Part shown: positions 1,727 to 9,328 of the stretch, piece by piece
Layout of the letters: the number at the start of each line of letters is the position of its first letter
How positions within the stretch are numbered: position 1 is the stretch's first letter
IMG/VR virus record: IMGVR_UViG_3300030380_005307
Span: 1 to 58,602 of that record
Origin: a virus
Taxonomy: Duplodnaviria > Caudoviricetes
Reading direction: 5' to 3' (one strand)
Length of the DNA stretch: 58,602 bases
Notes under the pieces: generated by a model
Database searches by the model: none
What the model was told of the DNA's origin: nothing
What the model saw: the letters and a program-made list of their open reading frames with translations, nothing else
Made by a program: the position numbers and the translations under genes

Positions 1727-1865
1727 ATCCTTTAATTTTTATCGATATTAATCCTATATATATTATTAATTCACTCCAATTATGATCCTTATCCCTAGAA
1801 TAGTAGGACCAACCCAATGCAAACCCTACTCGTAATCTATTATACAACTCTAAAGTATAAGACAT
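1710..1865 (-). CDS. Small hypothetical protein (51 aa, MSYTLELYNRLRVGFALGWSYY...)
   Basis: Manual translation; a TATCTTTG promoter element lies immediately upstream (1869-1876). Confidence 0.6.
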   Translation of the reverse strand: MSYTLELYNRLRVGFALGWSYYSRDKDHNWSELIIYIGLISIKIKGYGTYE

Positions 1866-1868
1866 TAT

Positions 1869-1876
1869 CAAAGATA
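1869..1876 (-). promoter_or_regulatory. -7 promoter element TATCTTTG, first promoter of the - strand arm
   Basis: Consensus match at the point where the two transcription directions diverge. Confidence 0.6.
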
Positions 1877-2294
1877 CAAATTTATTAGATACATAGAAGC
1901 TTTGTATTATACTATACTATACGCGCGCTGGCCGTCAAAGCAAACGCATTTTTTTTGACTGGGGTGGGGTGACACATGATCGGTGCATTGCAGATTTTTT
2001 GCCGTTTTGTCTGACTGACTATCAGGTACTTACAAGGTCGTCAACTGGGGAGCATCCTTGGTGATCCGTATTTTGTTTGACGTTTCGCAAAAATAATCCT
2101 CTTTGAGGAACGCTCACTGCGTTCGCTTAATACCCCAAAAGAGCAATTTAAAACCTAATTAAAGTAGATAATCCAGTCCGGGATCCAGCCCGACCACCAC
2201 AAGATCCCGGTCAGATTTGACACAAAACAACATTTCAAACATTTGATCAAACAAATCAATGTAAATCTCATTAGTTATTTATATAAATTCTATG

Positions 2295-2302
2295 TATATT
2301 TA
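2295..2302 (+). promoter_or_regulatory. Putative early promoter -7 variant (TATATTTA)
   Basis: One mismatch to TAnnTTTG, in an AT-rich context upstream of the first + strand gene. Confidence 0.45.
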
Positions 2303-2384
2303 CATCATGAGAGACAAACAACATACTGAAATCAAACGTAACTCACTCACTCTCAGTGAGTTACCTAACTTAAACCCTATTAAA

Positions 2385-2879
2385 ATGAAAAATTCAACAA
2401 CAACAACAGGTTATCACTTCACCTACAAAAAATACGATGTACAGATTACTCGGCTTTTCTGGGGGGGGAACAAAGAAGGTGATTGGGCAGTCGATGTCTT
2501 CAGACCAAATGGTTATAGATTATCGAGTAAATGTTTAGCTACTACTGATGACTGCGAGTCGTTTGCCAAAGATCAGGTAGAAGATCACATCAATTCAATG
2601 ATTGATCCGGATATGATCGATTCAATCGTTTGGTATGGACTTAATTACAATCCTAACTTTATCGATGAATGTTGGTCAGATGATCCATCCTTAGCTAATC
2701 ATTTAAAAGACAAGTTTGCGATGTGTCATGAAGGAACTGATGAATTGAAAGGATGGGTAAAGATAAGGTTGTCATATGGAGTCTTCACAAGATTCTTAAC
2801 CATGTTGGACAATGGTAACAGAGAGAAGTTATACAAATACATTCTTGAGAGATATAGCCACAGAAAAGGATGGTTATAA
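2385..2879 (+). CDS. Early hypothetical protein (likely start MKNSTTTTG)
   Basis: ORF track gives 2292..2879, but the extension covers the promoter and a leader hairpin; ATG 2385 has an A-rich leader. Confidence 0.75.
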   Translation: MKNSTTTTGYHFTYKKYDVQITRLFWGGNKEGDWAVDVFRPNGYRLSSKCLATTDDCESFAKDQVEDHINSMIDPDMIDSIVWYGLNYNPNFIDECWSDDPSLANHLKDKFAMCHEGTDELKGWVKIRLSYGVFTRFLTMLDNGNREKLYKYILERYSHRKGWL

Positions 2880-2884
2880 TCAAT

Positions 2885-2940
2885 TGCCTAATTGGATGTA
2901 CCGGGGTTCGATTCCCCGGTAGGCATCGACAATAATGTCA
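2885..2940 (+). ncRNA. tRNA-like (T-arm minihelix) intergenic element E1
   Basis: TGCCT/AGGCA outer stem, ATTGGAT bulge, ACCGGGG-TTCGATT-CCCCGGT T-arm, then TC and a GACA-ATAA-TGTC hairpin. Confidence 0.75.
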
Positions 2941-2960
2941 AACAACAAACAACAAAAATT

Positions 2961-3908
2961 ATGAATAATCAAGACAAAATTTTCAAACAAGTAAACGACA
3001 TCGTTTTAGAGGGGCTAAAGCGAGATGGGATGAAATGGTTCATGCCATGGAAACCGGGTGAAGAGTTTCAACCTATGAATCACTCCTCCAAAACCTATTA
3101 CAAAGGGTTCAATGTGTTCATGCTCAATGCAGTCATGACCTATGAAAGATATGAGTTTAACCAATGGTTGACCTACAAGCAATGCAAAGCTAATGGTGGT
3201 CAGGTTAATAAAGGTGAGAAATCAACCCAGATATACTTTTGGAAGATCGGATACTTTGATCAAAAGACTGAGAAATACCTATCTGATAAAGAGATCAAGA
3301 AAGCTAATCTATCAGAAAAGATTGTGGTTGATGGTACAACACAAAACCGATACAAAAAGACATTCTCAGTCAGATATTACAATGTGTTCAATGTCGCCCA
3401 ATGTGATGGCATTGATCCAATTGTATTTGATCAGTCTGAGATCACAAAGGCAAACGAACCAATCAAGGTTGCTGATGATCTTGCAAAAAGCTATGTTGAC
3501 CGGGATGGTAAGTTAAGACTCGAACACCTACAAGATCGTGCATTTTACAATGTCAACAGAGACATGGTCAATATGCCTAAACTTGAATCGTTTGTAGACT
3601 CTGATTCGTACTACAAAGTACTTTTCCATGAGTTAGCCCATTCAACTGGACACAAGGATCGAATGGATCGTAAAAGTCTTACAGAAGTATCCAATTGGGG
3701 TGATAACACCTATGCCAAGGAGGAACTGGTCGCTGAGATTTCAGCGATGTACATCTCAGGGATGTTGGGGCTTGATCCGAAAGACTGTGATCAGAATAGT
3801 GTGGCCTACATCAAGGGATGGTGTAAGCATCTATCTGATAAGCCAAAGGAATGCTTGTATGCGATGCAACAAGCGACAAAGGTTGTTGCCTACATCCAAG
3901 GTAACTAA
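2961..3908 (+). CDS. ardC: ArdC-like anti-restriction protein (ssDNA-binding N-domain plus zincin-like domain)
   Basis: W..PW, Y.G.N, WLTYKQ...GGQV.KGEK, VFNVAQ, HELAHSTGH and YAKEELVAE motifs. Real start is probably MNNQDKIF at 2961. Confidence 0.9.
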   Translation: MNNQDKIFKQVNDIVLEGLKRDGMKWFMPWKPGEEFQPMNHSSKTYYKGFNVFMLNAVMTYERYEFNQWLTYKQCKANGGQVNKGEKSTQIYFWKIGYFDQKTEKYLSDKEIKKANLSEKIVVDGTTQNRYKKTFSVRYYNVFNVAQCDGIDPIVFDQSEITKANEPIKVADDLAKSYVDRDGKLRLEHLQDRAFYNVNRDMVNMPKLESFVDSDSYYKVLFHELAHSTGHKDRMDRKSLTEVSNWGDNTYAKEELVAEISAMYISGMLGLDPKDCDQNSVAYIKGWCKHLSDKPKECLYAMQQATKVVAYIQGN

Positions 3909-3913
3909 TCAAC

Positions 3914-3970
3914 TCCGGGATTGGATCATGGAGGGGATCGTTTCCCCTCCCCGGATCGACAATATTGTCA
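3914..3970 (+). ncRNA. tRNA-like intergenic element E2
   Basis: TCCGG/CCGGA outer stem, ATTGGAT bulge, GGAGGGG-ATCGTTT-CCCCTCC arm, then TC and a GACAATATTGTC hairpin; compensatory changes relative to E1. Confidence 0.75.
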
Positions 3971-3989
3971 TTAACTAACAACAATAATT

Positions 3990-4385
3990 ATGTTAAAATC
4001 AGTATCATTTAAAAACTTGCCGAACAAATGCAAGTGTGGTATGTGGAACGTTGACCCAAAGGATTATGATGTATCGAAGTATGTCGGTATTCGTGTGGTT
4101 GATATTCCTAAATGCCGATCAGCAAAGAAGTTCAATTCTTTAGGGATCGGAGTAGCTTGTTTCGATGGGATCGAGTATCAAGGGTTTGGAGTCAAACACT
4201 ATGTTGACTATCACCGAGGGTTTGGTGATAGCAATGGATGTTCTATGACAACTGGATTTGAGGATGGAACAATGGCTGATCTTCTTGACCATGTAACTTG
4301 TGGAAGTGAAGTTTATCTTCATTGGGAATATTTAAAGGGTCATCCTAAAGCGTATGATTGCGAATGTAAAACCGAGAAATCATGA
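3990..4385 (+). CDS. Cys-rich early hypothetical protein
   Basis: ORF track; A-rich leader after E2. Confidence 0.75.
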   Translation: MLKSVSFKNLPNKCKCGMWNVDPKDYDVSKYVGIRVVDIPKCRSAKKFNSLGIGVACFDGIEYQGFGVKHYVDYHRGFGDSNGCSMTTGFEDGTMADLLDHVTCGSEVYLHWEYLKGHPKAYDCECKTEKS

Positions 4386-4630
4386 AACAAAGACTATTAA
4401 AATTTATTTGGAACGCCTTGTCTAAAATGGACAAGGGAAGGAAATGGGATTATGAATCAGCACCATATTGTGGTCATCATCATCAGGGATTTGAAAACAA
4501 GTACATCTCTGAAAGCTATCACGAAGGTGAAGGTGGAGGATTCTCAAAAGTCTCATTGTTGGGTTACATCATTGAGATGGACAATGTGTACCAGTCAGGT
4601 ACAATGTATTATTTAGTTAAAAAGATGTAA
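4382..4630 (+). CDS. Early hypothetical protein
   Basis: ORF track; ATGA overlap with the upstream gene. Confidence 0.75.
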   Translation: MKQRLLKFIWNALSKMDKGRKWDYESAPYCGHHHQGFENKYISESYHEGEGGGFSKVSLLGYIIEMDNVYQSGTMYYLVKKM

Positions 4631-4657
4631 CCGATGTCAGGGAGGGTTACACCTCCC

Positions 4658-4708
4658 TCTGTCGATAGGTGTGTGCCTATCCTGATGAGATCAAAAGATC
4701 GAAACGGA
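4658..4708 (+). ncRNA. Type III hammerhead ribozyme (predicted cleavage after GUC, 4663)
   Basis: Stem III UCUGU/ACGGA; GUC 4661-4663; stem I GAUAGG-UGUGUG-CCUAUC; core CUGAUGA 4682-4688; stem II GAUC-AAAA-GAUC; GAAA 4701-4704. Confidence 0.9.
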
Positions 4709-4729
4709 TTATTAACTAACAACAAAATT

Positions 4730-5035
4730 ATGTTACATTCAAAATTTAACACATCGTTTGATCTGACTGAACGTTCAGTTACGATCCACATTACTTACCG
4801 AGTCAATGGTGAGAATCACTACTTATCACCTTGGTTTTTATTTGATGATCAAGGTAAGCTAATAATTGATGACAATCGAGTACTAAAGGATTGTTTTAAG
4901 TACATAGCAAGACATATTAAAACTACCATGTCAAAACTCCAACAATATTTAGAGAAAGGATATCAAGAGTATCAAGAGGAGTGGCTAATGAATTATGACC
5001 ATTTAGAAACCATCAAACAAACATTAAACGATTAA
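4730..5035 (+). CDS. Early hypothetical protein (start MLHSKF)
   Basis: The ORF-track extension from 4634 runs through the ribozyme. ATG 4730 has nearly the same leader as ATG 3990. Confidence 0.75.
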   Translation: MLHSKFNTSFDLTERSVTIHITYRVNGENHYLSPWFLFDDQGKLIIDDNRVLKDCFKYIARHIKTTMSKLQQYLEKGYQEYQEEWLMNYDHLETIKQTLND

Positions 5036-5039
5036 GATT

Positions 5040-5306
5040 ATGTCACACAAAATTTTTCATGGCTCTCTTCAAAAACGAGAGCAAAGGGAACTGGCGAATT
5101 GGAAGAAAGATTTGCCAAGTATAGTCAGAGAATTTATGGCTACCAATCCATCAGAGGATGCGATTGAGGACTTTTATACCACAAAGGTAATGCGATATAC
5201 CAAAGATAGTATAGAAGAGATTCTAAAGGATGATTTAAATAACATTGAGACTACTGTGGAAATAGTAAACCATTTCGGTAGTTTCTTCAAACCTAACAAC
5301 AAATAA
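5040..5306 (+). CDS. Hypothetical protein
   Basis: ORF track; tight operon spacing. Confidence 0.75.
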   Translation: MSHKIFHGSLQKREQRELANWKKDLPSIVREFMATNPSEDAIEDFYTTKVMRYTKDSIEEILKDDLNNIETTVEIVNHFGSFFKPNNK

Positions 5307-5316
5307 ACCAAACAAA

Positions 5317-5514
5317 ATGACAATAAAAGAATTAAAAGATGTTTTGAAAACTTACAACGACAATGATGTTGTTGTAGTAGAAGTACATGATACAATCCTT
5401 TATGAGGATTTGTATGAATTTGACATTGATTCCATAAAGATGGACAAGAATAGAAAAGAGATAAGGATTTGTCCAAAAAACCATAAAGAAGAAGTTAACT
5501 TAAACCAACAATAA
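5317..5514 (+). CDS. Small acidic hypothetical protein
   Basis: ORF track; A-rich leader. Confidence 0.7.
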   Translation: MTIKELKDVLKTYNDNDVVVVEVHDTILYEDLYEFDIDSIKMDKNRKEIRICPKNHKEEVNLNQQ

Positions 5515-5515
5515 A

Positions 5516-5713
5516 ATGAAAGAGCAAAGAGTGTATATGATAGACACAACATTTGATGATTTGGATATTCCAAAGTTTGATGATAAAAGAACAGACAAAA
5601 TTTTTATGGAAATATCTGAACAACAAGGCAATGTATATTCTTTAGGAGGATTTACAAAGGCATTTAATAGAGGAGAAATAAACTCGAACACCGATATAAT
5701 AAGAATAATTTAA
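5516..5713 (+). CDS. Small hypothetical protein
   Basis: ORF track. Confidence 0.7.
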   Translation: MKEQRVYMIDTTFDDLDIPKFDDKRTDKIFMEISEQQGNVYSLGGFTKAFNRGEINSNTDIIRII

Positions 5714-5724
5714 AAACCAATAAA

Positions 5725-5898
5725 ATGAAAGACAAGAAAACCTTTAGTTTTTATGTTCCTTGTAGTATGATGTATTACATAGAAGCAAAAAACGAAAAAG
5801 AAGCAAGACAAATTTTAATAGATCAAGGAGGGATTTCTATTCAAGGGGATTTACTAATTGATAAATCAGATTATTTAGAAGCTGAAATATATAATTAA
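5725..5898 (+). CDS. Small hypothetical protein (57 aa, MKDKKTFSFYVPC...)
   Basis: Manual translation; fills the operon gap. Confidence 0.7.
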   Translation: MKDKKTFSFYVPCSMMYYIEAKNEKEARQILIDQGGISIQGDLLIDKSDYLEAEIYN

Positions 5899-5913
5899 TT
5901 TAAAACCAATAAA

Positions 5914-6087
5914 ATGAAAGAATTAAATATTTGTTTACGTTGTGATCATTTATCTGAAGATGTATATGAAGATGAAACATTTGATATAGATGATTACCAC
6001 AGAATACAATGCCCAAAATGTTATAGTAGTGAATACTACCTTGCAACAGAGGTAGAAGAATTTATACATAAACTTAAATTAAAATAA
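5914..6087 (+). CDS. Small zinc-ribbon protein (57 aa)
   Basis: Manual translation with a CLRC...CPKC pair. Confidence 0.7.
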   Translation: MKELNICLRCDHLSEDVYEDETFDIDDYHRIQCPKCYSSEYYLATEVEEFIHKLKLK

Positions 6088-6088
6088 A

Positions 6089-6397
6089 ATGAGAATGATA
6101 GATTTAGATAAAGAAAAAGTTGAAGGAGGATGTCTTTATTGGACTGCTTTAGATGTAGCATATAAAGTAGAACATTGGGTAGAAATGCCTTCTGATGTTC
6201 AAGAAGTTTATCAAATAATCGATGAACACACAGAAGAACACCGAGAATATTTACAAGGATTAATGCAAGATGCTATTGAGGAAAATCACGAAACCATATG
6301 CGATAAAATTAATGAATGCCTTTGGGATTATATGATTGAAAATAAAACAGAAATAATCCAAACGCTTATTGAAAATAAATATTTAAAACTAAAATAA
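6089..6397 (+). CDS. Acidic hypothetical protein
   Basis: ORF track. Confidence 0.75.
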   Translation: MRMIDLDKEKVEGGCLYWTALDVAYKVEHWVEMPSDVQEVYQIIDEHTEEHREYLQGLMQDAIEENHETICDKINECLWDYMIENKTEIIQTLIENKYLKLK

Positions 6398-6398
6398 A

Positions 6399-6644
6399 AT
6401 GAAAATAATAACAAACACAAAAGTCATTGAAAAAGCTATCTCCTATGATGGGGATAGCTATATGGTATGGGAGTATACCAATGACAACAAGAACAAAGAG
6501 ATAGCCATCATGGATGATACCGGATATGATGTAAGCCTAAAGACCAAAGTACTGGAGGATGGTAAAGTAAAATCAGAAGTACATTTACTTTGTCCAGACC
6601 CGGAGGAGTACATACATGAACAATTTATAAACTTTAAAAATTAA
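6399..6644 (+). CDS. Hypothetical protein
   Basis: ORF track. Confidence 0.7.
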   Translation: MKIITNTKVIEKAISYDGDSYMVWEYTNDNKNKEIAIMDDTGYDVSLKTKVLEDGKVKSEVHLLCPDPEEYIHEQFINFKN

Positions 6645-6649
6645 ATAAA

Positions 6650-6808
6650 ATGAAAAAAAGATTTACAACAGAATTGGGAATATTTTTAAATGAATATGCA
6701 AAAAATAATTTTGACTGTGATGGTTATGACCAATTACCTGAAAACACAAAAATGTGGATTAGAAATGATATAGTTAATAAAATGGACGAATTATTAAATT
6801 TAAATTAA
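6650..6808 (+). CDS. Small hypothetical protein (52 aa)
   Basis: Manual translation MKKRFTTELGIFLNEYAK... Confidence 0.65.
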   Translation: MKKRFTTELGIFLNEYAKNNFDCDGYDQLPENTKMWIRNDIVNKMDELLNLN

Positions 6809-6813
6809 AAAAA

Positions 6814-6921
6814 ATGAGAATATATAAAGAACACAAAGATGGAGAGATCGTGGCAATTTTACACAGAGATTTTCCAAAGGTTTATGATCAGATATTAGAA
6901 TATTTAGATCAAGAAGGATAG
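6814..6921 (+). CDS. Small hypothetical protein (35 aa)
   Basis: Manual translation MRIYKEHKDGEIV...; its stop codon overlaps E4. Confidence 0.55.
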   Translation: MRIYKEHKDGEIVAILHRDFPKVYDQILEYLDQEG

Positions 6922-6973
6922 CATGGTGCATTGGGAGGTTCGATTCCTCCCTGTCCACGAGTAATAATGCTCA
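6916..6973 (+). ncRNA. tRNA-like intergenic element E4
   Basis: GGATA/TGTCC outer stem, TGG-containing bulge, GGGAGG-TTCGATT-CCTCCC T-arm, then AC and a GAGTA-ATAA-TGCTC hairpin. Confidence 0.75.
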
Positions 6974-6992
6974 ATAATTTAATCAACATATT

Positions 6993-7256
6993 ATGTCAGA
7001 ATTTGAAACAAAAAATTTAATTGTAAAATGGCAAAACTCAACAAGGAAGTTACTTGTTGGTAAAACGATCAAACACATCAGGTACTTAAATGATGAGGAA
7101 ATGGAGGCTCTTATGTGGCATTCAAGACCAATAGTAATTGTTTTTACTGATGGAAGTTTACTTATTCCCCAATCAGATGATGAGGGAAATGATGGTGGTG
7201 CAATGCTCTACCAAGACAAAGATGGTAATCATGATGTAATCCCAGTAATTTATTAA
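6993..7256 (+). CDS. Phage hypothetical protein (DDEGNDGG motif)
   Basis: ORF track. Confidence 0.8.
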   Translation: MSEFETKNLIVKWQNSTRKLLVGKTIKHIRYLNDEEMEALMWHSRPIVIVFTDGSLLIPQSDDEGNDGGAMLYQDKDGNHDVIPVIY

Positions 7257-7282
7257 GATGGCACATAACTACAACACTCCTG

Positions 7283-7600
7283 ATGAGAATATCAGGGAAG
7301 AAAATGAAGAGAACAAATAAAATAATGGTAATAATTAAAAACTTTGGTAAACGACATGGGTATGGCACAAATATCCATGTCGCTTTTATCATTAACGCTT
7401 TTTATAAACGTAGAGCGGGTGCAAATCTTGATATATTTGTAGAATCAATTGTTAATCATAATGGGATACAATTTATATCCTTACGAGAAAACGGAACTAA
7501 TAACTATTTAAATTTGGATTATATTGAAAAGTATGATCTGTACGAAATAATTATTAACGAAGTAAATAAAGACTATGAAAGCAGTTTTACAATATATTAA
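7283..7600 (+). CDS. Hypothetical protein (start may be 7325)
   Basis: ORF track. Confidence 0.6.
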   Translation: MRISGKKMKRTNKIMVIIKNFGKRHGYGTNIHVAFIINAFYKRRAGANLDIFVESIVNHNGIQFISLRENGTNNYLNLDYIEKYDLYEIIINEVNKDYESSFTIY

Positions 7601-8952: not shown

Positions 8953-9328
8953 CCTGAAGGATATATATATTCAAGCTGAAGATGATCCTGCGACAACAAA
9001 TTTAGATGGCAAAGGATACGATGCTCAAATGTTGCATGGAGTACAAATTATGCGTGACCATGCTACAGAGAATATTAAAATTTTTAATCCAAGAGGTAAA
9101 GAATACTACGATGAACTCACTTCAGCTGAATATGAATTATTCAACCAAGGGTGGCGTAAAGGTGTTTTAAATTTAGTTCTCCAGGTATATAGAAATCGCT
9201 TGGATGTTATTGAAAAAAAAATACCTCAAGTATTAAATAACCACAAGACGTTGTCTGCTTTAAAAGAGAGAAGGAGTGGACTACTTAAAAAGTATTTCAA
9301 ACTAACACAAAAGTTAAACCAACTATGA
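8945..9328 (+). CDS. Hypothetical protein
   Basis: ORF track. Confidence 0.75.
   Translation: MLDLKDIYIQAEDDPATTNLDGKGYDAQMLHGVQIMRDHATENIKIFNPRGKEYYDELTSAEYELFNQGWRKGVLNLVLQVYRNRLDVIEKKIPQVLNNHKTLSALKERRSGLLKKYFKLTQKLNQL

Follow-up and report, generated by a model that had tools for sequence, protein, structure and literature searches.

The window analysed here, the whole 58,602-bp stretch of the viral record IMGVR_UViG_3300030380_005307 from IMG/VR (Duplodnaviria; Caudoviricetes), belongs to a marine phage and carries three small elements resembling transfer RNA (tRNA), designated E1, E2 and E4, between genes of its early operon. They belong to a large, widespread RNA family of phages and prophages. 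The elements probably mark cut sites of the early transcript, because the same gene-boundary slots hold self-cleaving ribozymes in sister phages. Lacking a ribozyme-like core, possessing features used in tRNA processing and occurring in diverse hosts, they are therefore read as host endonuclease processing signals. On balance we favour a reading in which host ribonuclease (RNase) Z and/or RNase P would cut them, making them a phage counterpart of the t-elements of plant mitochondria.

All three elements are ~41–45 nucleotides (nt) long and combine an acceptor-like stem, a mini hairpin with a UGG loop and a T arm with a tRNA-type T loop (Table 1). The outer stem comprises 5 base pairs (bp), the TGG-containing insert 11–12 nt, the T stem 6–7 bp and the T loop 7 nt, and the 3′ strand of the outer stem continues the T stem with a gap of 0–1 nt. 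Each element is followed by 2 nt, a hairpin of 4–5 bp and an A-rich leader ending in ATTATG. An earlier description of this DNA made from its letters alone (hereafter the sequence-only reading) listed the stems, the 7-nt T loops (TTCGATT twice, ATCGTTT once), the 2-nt spacer, the GA...TC hairpin and the ATTATG leader, and all of these are present in the sequence. Its statement that the anticodon arm and CCA are missing likewise holds for E1, E2 and E4, and ARAGORN reports 0 tRNAs. Two of its descriptions need amendment. The elements were said to begin at or just after a stop codon, which is true of E1 and E2 with their upstream TAA; however, the stop of the 35-codon open reading frame (ORF) preceding E4, TAG 6919–6921, falls inside the element, where it runs from the outer stem into the first mini-hairpin base. 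The "TGG D-loop-like bulge" does contain TGG, but it is no bulge: the bases around the UGG loop form a hairpin of 3 covarying base pairs, or 2 in E1. ViennaRNA folds of single copies yield modest z-scores (−1.3 to −3.0), and for E1 and E2 the minimum-energy structure lacks the outer stem. The plain motif GGNTCGWTTCC gives 4 matches vs 2.5 expected, which is not significant alone.

A search with the protein encoded by the ArdC-like gene retrieved 11 sister loci (51–77% identity), which were therefore selected independently of RNA structure. Two of them, L004 and L005, possess syntenic copies with compensatory T-stem changes in the E1 slot, and in the E2 slot a copy with wholly different outer and T stems and the same insert. 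L012 and L013 have an E4-like copy downstream of the ArdC homologue, and L004 also contains one. Two covariance models were used, R1 based on 12 sequences from the window and its sisters only, and R2 based on 72 training sequences, 3 of them from the window, with 15 pairs including those of the mini hairpin. R1 makes exactly three matches in the window. R2, run with filters off over the 58,602 bases of both strands, also makes exactly three, scoring 51.5 (E4), 50.3 (E2) and 48.1 bits (E1), and its next-best match there reaches 8.4 bits. In five related or pattern-found viral records R1 gives 1–5 matches each, all in one small region and on one strand; on unrelated contigs outside the training set it scores 45–52 bits.

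Pattern scans covered IMG/VR (twice) and GTDB genomes (once), with R1 and then R2 run on the fetched loci. The viral figures given here hold among the matches listed, which comprise 235 pattern-fetched loci. At least one element at E ≤ 1e-4 is found in 54 of them (41/100, 11/100 and 2/35 by batch), and the other 181 serve as controls. Of the GTDB genome loci, 10/27 (on 9 contigs) contain an R2 match at E ≤ 0.001, with five copies on the Agathobaculum contig, five on one contig of Dehalococcoidia and two in Streptomyces. Further genome matches come from Actinoplanes, Cytophagaceae, Corynebacterium tapiri and Bacteroides sp. GM023, and weaker R2 matches from one metagenome-assembled genome (MAG) of Thermoplasmata and one of Clostridia. 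Genes for Erf, a replication initiator, a DnaC-like loader and an HNH/endonuclease VII protein mark the Agathobaculum region as a prophage early region. Hosts of the element include Bacteroidota, Firmicutes, Actinomycetota and Chloroflexi, where it lies in prophage-like regions; they differ in translation signals and GC content, and this unlikeness points to universal host machinery.

Comparison of 90 distinct sequences bears out the earlier observation that stem sequences differ while their pairing is kept: 94.1% of cells are in standard pairs vs 56.3% in shuffles, both sides change in 14 of the 15 pairs, and the covariation score is 0.865 vs 0.180 for the shuffled set. Pairing falls to 45–50% when the partners are slid by 1–3 columns, and the R1 alignment gave similar covariation values. 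The mini hairpin occurs in the forms GCA/UGC, GUA/UAC, GCU/AGC, GAU/AUC, UAU/AUA and ACA/UGU around a conserved UGG loop. The pair closing the T loop is G-C in 90/90 sequences. Among 82 T loops, TTCGATT is found 59 times, followed by TTCGACT (10), TTCGAGT (5), TTCGAAT (4), ATCGTTT (2), CTCGTTT (1) and CTCGCTT (1). The stacked helix, put at 11–12 bp by the sequence-only reading and likened there to the acceptor plus T stem, measures 11–13 bp in 76 of the 82 family members (11, 12 and 13 bp in 16, 23 and 37, respectively, by a count that maximises pairing and may add one pair), compared with 12 bp in tRNA. In most members 9–13 nt separate the acceptor-like stem from the T stem.

The family thus shows the features of a tRNA top half, namely a 3′ strand running unbroken through a stack of ~12 bp, a T loop of 7 nt (typically UUCRANY) with a G-C closing pair, and a UGG partner loop. 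Its conserved positions are solely those that build the acceptor/T stack and the elbow of tRNA. In the predicted fold the UGG mini hairpin would stand in for the D loop, the closing pair of the T loop corresponds to G53-C61, and a tertiary contact is predicted. A T-loop variant (ATCGTTT, CTCGTTT or ATCGTTC vs TTCGATT) changes loop bases 1 and 5 together, and these are the positions that pair within the tRNA T loop. It recurs in unrelated lineages (the window at 3937–3943, L064 at 2518–2565 and L137 at 9057–9104) and is also seen in the second elements of L101, L124 and L147.

Throughout the family the elements are intercistronic and lie on the coding strand. According to a simple ORF caller, an ATG-started ORF begins ≤80 nt downstream in 44/61 cases (median 40 nt), and a stop codon lies within −8 to +20 nt at the upstream side in 31/58. 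The stop codon is located inside the 5′ strand of E4 and of elements from several other lineages. The largest array, at 2941–6966 (+) of the viral locus L131, contains eleven elements spaced by ~350 nt, one after each of 11 consecutive small ORFs. These ORFs end 4–8 nt before the element, apart from two that overlap its first bases, and the next ORF starts 2 to ~65 nt after it, mostly ~40 nt. Most elements of this array are then followed by CCCA, a 6–8 bp hairpin that covaries by eye, GTTGTAAACCAAT and ATG. Across the family a hairpin starts ≤6 nt downstream of the element in 42/94 cases vs 10.7% in shuffles. The idea of a protective 5′ hairpin on each processed messenger RNA (mRNA), advanced in the sequence-only reading, therefore survives as an enriched feature, but one that is lineage-specific and not universal. 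In a separate operon (L022, 1794–4925, +) six elements punctuate the genes, five at 39–43 bits and one at 25.9. The leaders of this phage are of the Shine-Dalgarno type (AAAGGA), and in some of its elements the UGG mini hairpin gives way to a longer hairpin of 6 bp, in which two copies differ by a compensatory change.

The strongest indication of function comes from what else occupies these slots. In the sister L003 (77% ArdC identity), a type I hammerhead ribozyme is located directly before the ArdC homologue, that is, in the E1 slot of the window, and the same type III hammerhead as in the window is found further on. L004 likewise has a type III hammerhead (40.6 bits). A pistol ribozyme (67.5 bits; gathering score 34.5) is present in L012 and L013, separated from the ArdC homologue downstream by one 33-codon ORF; in L012 it spans 3788–3854, with a TAA in the loop of its first hairpin that is possibly the stop of the upstream ORF. 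Complete hammerheads, i.e., those passing a strict core-plus-helix scan, occur in 7/54 element-bearing and 0/181 other pattern-fetched viral loci (one-sided hypergeometric p ~2.5e-5, hand calculation). Three hammerheads in L093 pass the strict scan alone and are unreported by cmscan at E ≤ 0.1. Type I hammerheads place the cleavage site 21–23 nt from the ATG, with a single exception at 35 nt, and inspection by eye revealed no hairpin downstream of their cleavage sites. From their positions, the element and two unrelated ribozyme classes are alternatives at the same gene boundaries.

The window itself contains such a case. The slot labelled E3, which follows the stop at 4628–4630 and whose leader TTATTAACTAACAACAAAATT runs to ATG 4730, holds a predicted type III hammerhead and not a fourth copy of the element. 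The RF00008 match at 4656–4710, obtained in a search of 96 nt (E 1.1e-6), reaches 35.2 bits where the gathering score is 48.5, and the sequence is unlisted in the wider Rfam scans (whole window at gathering; 2500–7300 at E ≤ 10). All core positions (C3–A9, G12–A14, A15.1–U16.1, H17) and the three helices pass the strict scan. The hairpin at 4639–4658 would cap the 3′ end of the upstream fragment. The leaders after E2 (3970–3984) and after the hammerhead (4712–4726) have the 15-nt sequence ATTAACTAACAACAA in common. In the sister L004, an E2-like element directly precedes the homologue of ORF 5040, and the segment corresponding to 3990–5035 is lacking. Gene cassettes seem to have been gained or lost at the repeated ATTAACTAACAACAA leaders.

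More distant sisters carry a third motif in the same slots around the ArdC homologue (Table 1). Its parts are, in order, a 5′ CCACC-like strand, a hairpin of 7–10 bp, UUU, GGUGG and UAGAAAC. Rfam has no model matching it, and the window has no copy; a fold of 5 sequences lends support to the inner hairpin alone (covariation term −0.2). It may serve as a terminator, a site of the RNase III type or some other processing signal. One of these sisters (L006) has no mini-tRNA-like elements near the ArdC homologue, and its early region includes a genuine tRNA gene at 3163–3236 (+; RF00005, 71.4 bits).

RNase P, RNase Z and the CCA-adding enzyme read the tRNA features that are present in the element. 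An RNA cut is what the ribozymes and the mimic at the same slots can share. We propose that the elements would be transcribed within the early polycistronic mRNA and recognized by their shape by host tRNA-processing endonucleases, with RNase Z cutting just 3′ of the acceptor-like stem and/or RNase P cutting at the 5′ edge. The cut would separate the cistrons and leave the downstream mRNA with a short leader lacking a Shine-Dalgarno sequence, which in this phage would start with the small hairpin. The element would then be an enzyme-dependent equivalent of the hammerhead and pistol ribozymes in the same slots, and a 3′-side cut would parallel that of the type I hammerhead and pistol. The hairpin may protect a 5′-phosphate end, whereas the 5′-OH end arising from a ribozyme cut may need no such protection. 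For the claim of the sequence-only reading that the elements are signals for cutting the early polycistron, ribozyme slot sharing, the conserved elbow and the enriched downstream hairpin provide comparative support that is strong, if indirect; the cut and the enzyme are still what we infer.

Several points speak against a processing function or narrow the data behind it. The scan patterns fix the UGG hairpin and the T loop, and diversity beyond these two variants is therefore unsampled; the covariation alignments were fitted to the model, and their members were fetched by pattern. Five of the seven hammerhead loci are one lineage, leaving ~3 independent lineages that, together with the window's own, bring the association to ~4. 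The full element is absent from the GenBank relatives NC_055853.1, MW202828.1 and PP540027.1, found through the primase/helicase and searched whole with R2; PP540027.1 yields a single 19.8-bit match covering the T arm only. The commonest stack length is 13 bp (37/82) and not the 12 bp of tRNA, and CCA follows the stem inconsistently, in only 10/82. The downstream hairpin is missing in over half of the members. Finally, by cutting at the 5′ edge RNase P would deprive the ORF before E4 of its stop codon; the t-element study (PMC1920247) shows the same for plant nad6 and ccmC.

It is possible, though in our view unlikely, that the released ~45-nt mini-tRNA is itself the product, with the mRNA cut merely releasing it. 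It would be a decoy or sponge for host factors binding the elbow or acceptor (defence nucleases, modification enzymes, the CCA-adding enzyme or RNase P), or else a chargeable minihelix. The high copy number per transcript (11 in L131, 5 each in the Agathobaculum and Dehalococcoidia contigs), the location in early regions beside anti-restriction and takeover-type genes and the strict conservation of elbow features would suit such a role. However, the stems vary freely and keep no sequence identity, which argues against sequence-specific decoys; without an anticodon arm the target of anticodon nucleases is not mimicked; CCA is not consistently encoded; and the ribozymes in the same slots release no such RNA. 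A doubtful extension of both ideas is that the mimic, hammerheads and pistols are swappable cleavage modules in phages and that the mimic, besides being cut, releases stable CCA-tailed mini-tRNAs, up to 11 per transcript, that would accumulate and titrate elbow- or acceptor-reading host proteins, including tRNA-directed defence enzymes.

We also give little credence to the element remaining uncut and serving as a folded mRNA insulator, which might hold up 3′-exonucleases, prevent translational coupling or read-through, or bind ribosomes or factors as a tRNA mimic and so aid initiation on the leader downstream. The elements do lie directly after stop codons and 35–45 nt before starts, where the stop codon falls within the 5′ strand the ribosome has to unfold the element in order to terminate, and the folds in the window have z-scores of only −1.3 to −3.0. 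But a plain hairpin would suffice for these tasks, yet the tRNA-specific T loop and the UGG loop are kept across phyla, and equivalent slots are occupied by self-cleaving ribozymes, whose sole known activity is cleavage.

A new class of self-cleaving ribozymes built on a T-loop scaffold appears quite improbable. The element co-occurs and swaps slots with hammerhead and pistol, a type of context that revealed other classes according to Harris et al. (PMC4604425), and it matches no Rfam family. Against this, the tRNA elbow accounts for all conserved nucleotides, leaving no further conserved junction nucleotides for an active site, and the likeness to tRNA is such that the t-element motif GGTTCRANYCC reported in PMC1920247 matches E1 and E4. 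It is highly improbable that the elements lack any RNA function and represent decayed pieces of tRNA genes, remains of attachment sites or boundaries of recombination, the inert-remnant reading being already disfavoured by covariation: despite the tRNA-like T arm, the gene cassettes that differ between sisters at these boundaries and the ATTAACTAACAACAA shared by the E2 and hammerhead leaders, every helix, even the mini hairpin that tRNA lacks, is maintained by compensatory changes, the matches in each record searched (the window and five sister or related ones) all share one direction, and tandem arrays have one element per gene.

The processing signals proposed here match no Rfam family. Rfam 15 at gathering thresholds gives 0 matches to the elements in the whole window, and at E ≤ 10 over 2500–7300 only chance-level matches for them, with no ribozyme model (hammerhead, twister, twister-sister, pistol, hatchet, HDV-like and others) matching E1, E2 or E4; the sequence-only reading had named a described Rfam family with another function as grounds for its refutation, and none was found for the elements. 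As for tRNA, ARAGORN predicts 0 genes in the window and RF00005 has no match at E ≤ 10. The only Rfam model matching E1 even weakly is mascRNA-menRNA (RF01684; 17.5 bits, E = 7), and since this lies below the gathering score of 42.5, E1 is not a member. A blastn search of 2200–7300 against GenBank phages returned no match, and a look-up of the same interval listed no RNA run that contains it. In the literature searched we found no description of the element in phages, and an earlier mention elsewhere is possible. The family is apparently uncurated and missed by annotation pipelines.

Among known systems, mascRNA/MEN-beta resembles the element in being a tRNA-like structure within a longer transcript, and mascRNA is processed by RNase P and RNase Z; it differs as a vertebrate nuclear RNA with a cloverleaf-like fold. 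The TMER genes of murine gammaherpesvirus 68 combine a viral tRNA-like unit with hairpins directly after it, and host tRNase Z cuts between the two. They are, in contrast, eukaryotic RNA polymerase III transcripts with full tRNA-like cloverleaves, and they yield microRNAs and not mRNAs. The early transcript of phage T7 is cut between cistrons at RNase III sites, which are double-stranded hairpins, unlike the tRNA-mimic element. In animal mitochondrial transcripts real tRNAs serve as the sites for host endonucleases between cistrons, whereas the element is a mimic; this tRNA punctuation is the subject of PMC3790967.

The closest parallel is provided by plant mitochondrial t-elements, at which RNase Z and RNase P cut to create the 5′ and 3′ ends of mRNAs (Forner et al. 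2007, PMC1920247). The same source describes them as ~74-nt non-canonical cloverleaves, some of which are cut inside reading frames, and reports that released t-elements gain non-templated C/A. Both systems have a tRNA-like structure inside mRNA with a conserved T arm, and the t-element motif GGTTCRANYCC is matched by E1 and E4 (GGTTCGATTCC) but not by E2 (GGATCGTTTCC). In comparison with the t-elements of that account, the phage element is shorter (~41–45 nt), lacks an anticodon arm, possesses a 3-bp UGG mini hairpin and is predicted, not known, to be processed; unlike these organellar structures it is spread over phages and prophages from many phyla, often with one copy per gene. On the ribozyme side, Perreault et al. 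(2011, PMC3088659) describe prophage hammerheads that flank the anti-restriction gene ardA and propose that they cut transcripts into gene-length mRNAs; in a similar way E1 and E2 flank the ArdC-like gene. Ribozyme classes have been discovered from this kind of genomic context (Harris et al. 2015, PMC4604425). The hammerhead and pistol ribozymes share the niche of the element, the intergenic boundaries of early phage genes. The ribozymes cut themselves, producing 5′-OH and 2′,3′-cyclic phosphate ends, whereas the element, with no ribozyme core, would depend on enzymes of the host.

As a viral record the window looks complete (CheckV completeness 98%), with a block of small ORFs on the + strand at ~2.3–15.6 kb. 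Beyond the ArdC-like gene, the phage encodes proteins resembling the Erf annealing protein and exonuclease VIII, together with a primase/helicase and an SNF2-type helicase, and this gene content agrees with the earlier assumption that the block is an early/replication operon. The nearest named relatives of the primase/helicase belong to phages of Flavobacterium, Polaribacter, Cellulophaga, Maribacter and Bacteroides. The leaders after the elements lack a Shine-Dalgarno sequence, and for this reason the host is likely a member of Bacteroidota. No terminator-like site is present at any element, and sigma-70-like sites are at shuffle level (36 vs 30±5.8), though this consensus may not fit a Bacteroidota host; on these grounds a promoter or terminator reading of the elements was rejected. 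An ORF at 3–1115 (−), running off the window end, matches the phage GroEL-like chaperonin family phrog_5725 (E 6e-83).

Table 1. Coordinates of the elements, the hammerhead and associated features in the window, and of the third motif in sister loci.
Feature	Position	Strand	Details
Stop codon TAA upstream of E1	2877–2879		
E1, mini-tRNA-like element	2885–2925	+	R2 48.1 bits
E1 outer stem	T2885–T2889 / A2921–A2925		
E1 insert	2890–2900		11 nt, AATTGGATGTA; holds UGG mini hairpin (2 bp)
E1 T stem	2901–2906 / 2914–2919		T arm 2901–2919; T loop TTCGATT 2907–2913
Small hairpin after E1	2928–2939	+	GACA-ATAA-TGTC; starts 2 nt past E1
Leader after E1 hairpin	to ATG 2961		A-rich, no Shine-Dalgarno; leads to ArdC-like gene
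ArdC-like gene	2961–3908	+	Pfam ArdcN and MPTase-PolyVal (zincin peptidase domain)
Stop codon TAA upstream of E2	3906–3908		
E2, mini-tRNA-like element	3914–3955	+	R2 50.3 bits; all modelled pairs formed
E2 outer stem	3914–3918 / 3951–3955		
E2 mini hairpin	3919–3927		GAT-TGG-ATC
E2 T stem	3930–3936 / 3944–3950		variant T loop ATCGTTT 3937–3943
Small hairpin after E2	3958–3969	+	GACA-ATAT-TGTC; then leader ATTAACTAACAACAATAATT to ATG 3990
Hairpin AGGGAGG-GTTACA-CCTCCCT	4639–4658	+	just upstream of hammerhead cleavage site
Type III hammerhead ribozyme (predicted)	4656–4710	+	between ORF 4382–4630 and ORF 4730–5035
Hammerhead core	4682–4688; 4701–4704		CUGAUGA; GAAA; predicted cleavage after GUC 4661–4663
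E4, mini-tRNA-like element	6916–6956	+	R2 51.5 bits
E4 outer stem	6916–6920 / 6952–6956		
E4 mini hairpin	6921–6929		GCA-TGG-TGC
E4 T stem	6933–6938 / 6946–6951		T loop TTCGATT 6939–6945
Small hairpin after E4	6959–6972	+	GAGTA-ATAA-TGCTC; then leader to ATG 6993
Third motif, L006	~4936–5002		
Third motif, L009	~4958–5016		
Third motif, L010	~1864–1916		
Third motif, L011	~3908–3968; ~4955–5012		

The biological role of self-cleaving ribozymes in bacteria and phages is described as still undefined in PMC6765202. That a tRNA mimic fills the slots of two unrelated ribozyme classes argues that the cut itself, and not ribozyme chemistry, is the selected function. These interchangeable slots allow a direct swap experiment between element and ribozyme. 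The elements define a compact (~45 nt) RNA family and, as natural tRNA mimics reduced to the elbow, could help to study how RNase P, RNase Z and the CCA-adding enzyme recognize their substrates; they may also be usable as a processing part in polycistronic constructs. If the processing reading is true, tRNA punctuation and t-element processing would reach from organelles to phages of many bacterial phyla.

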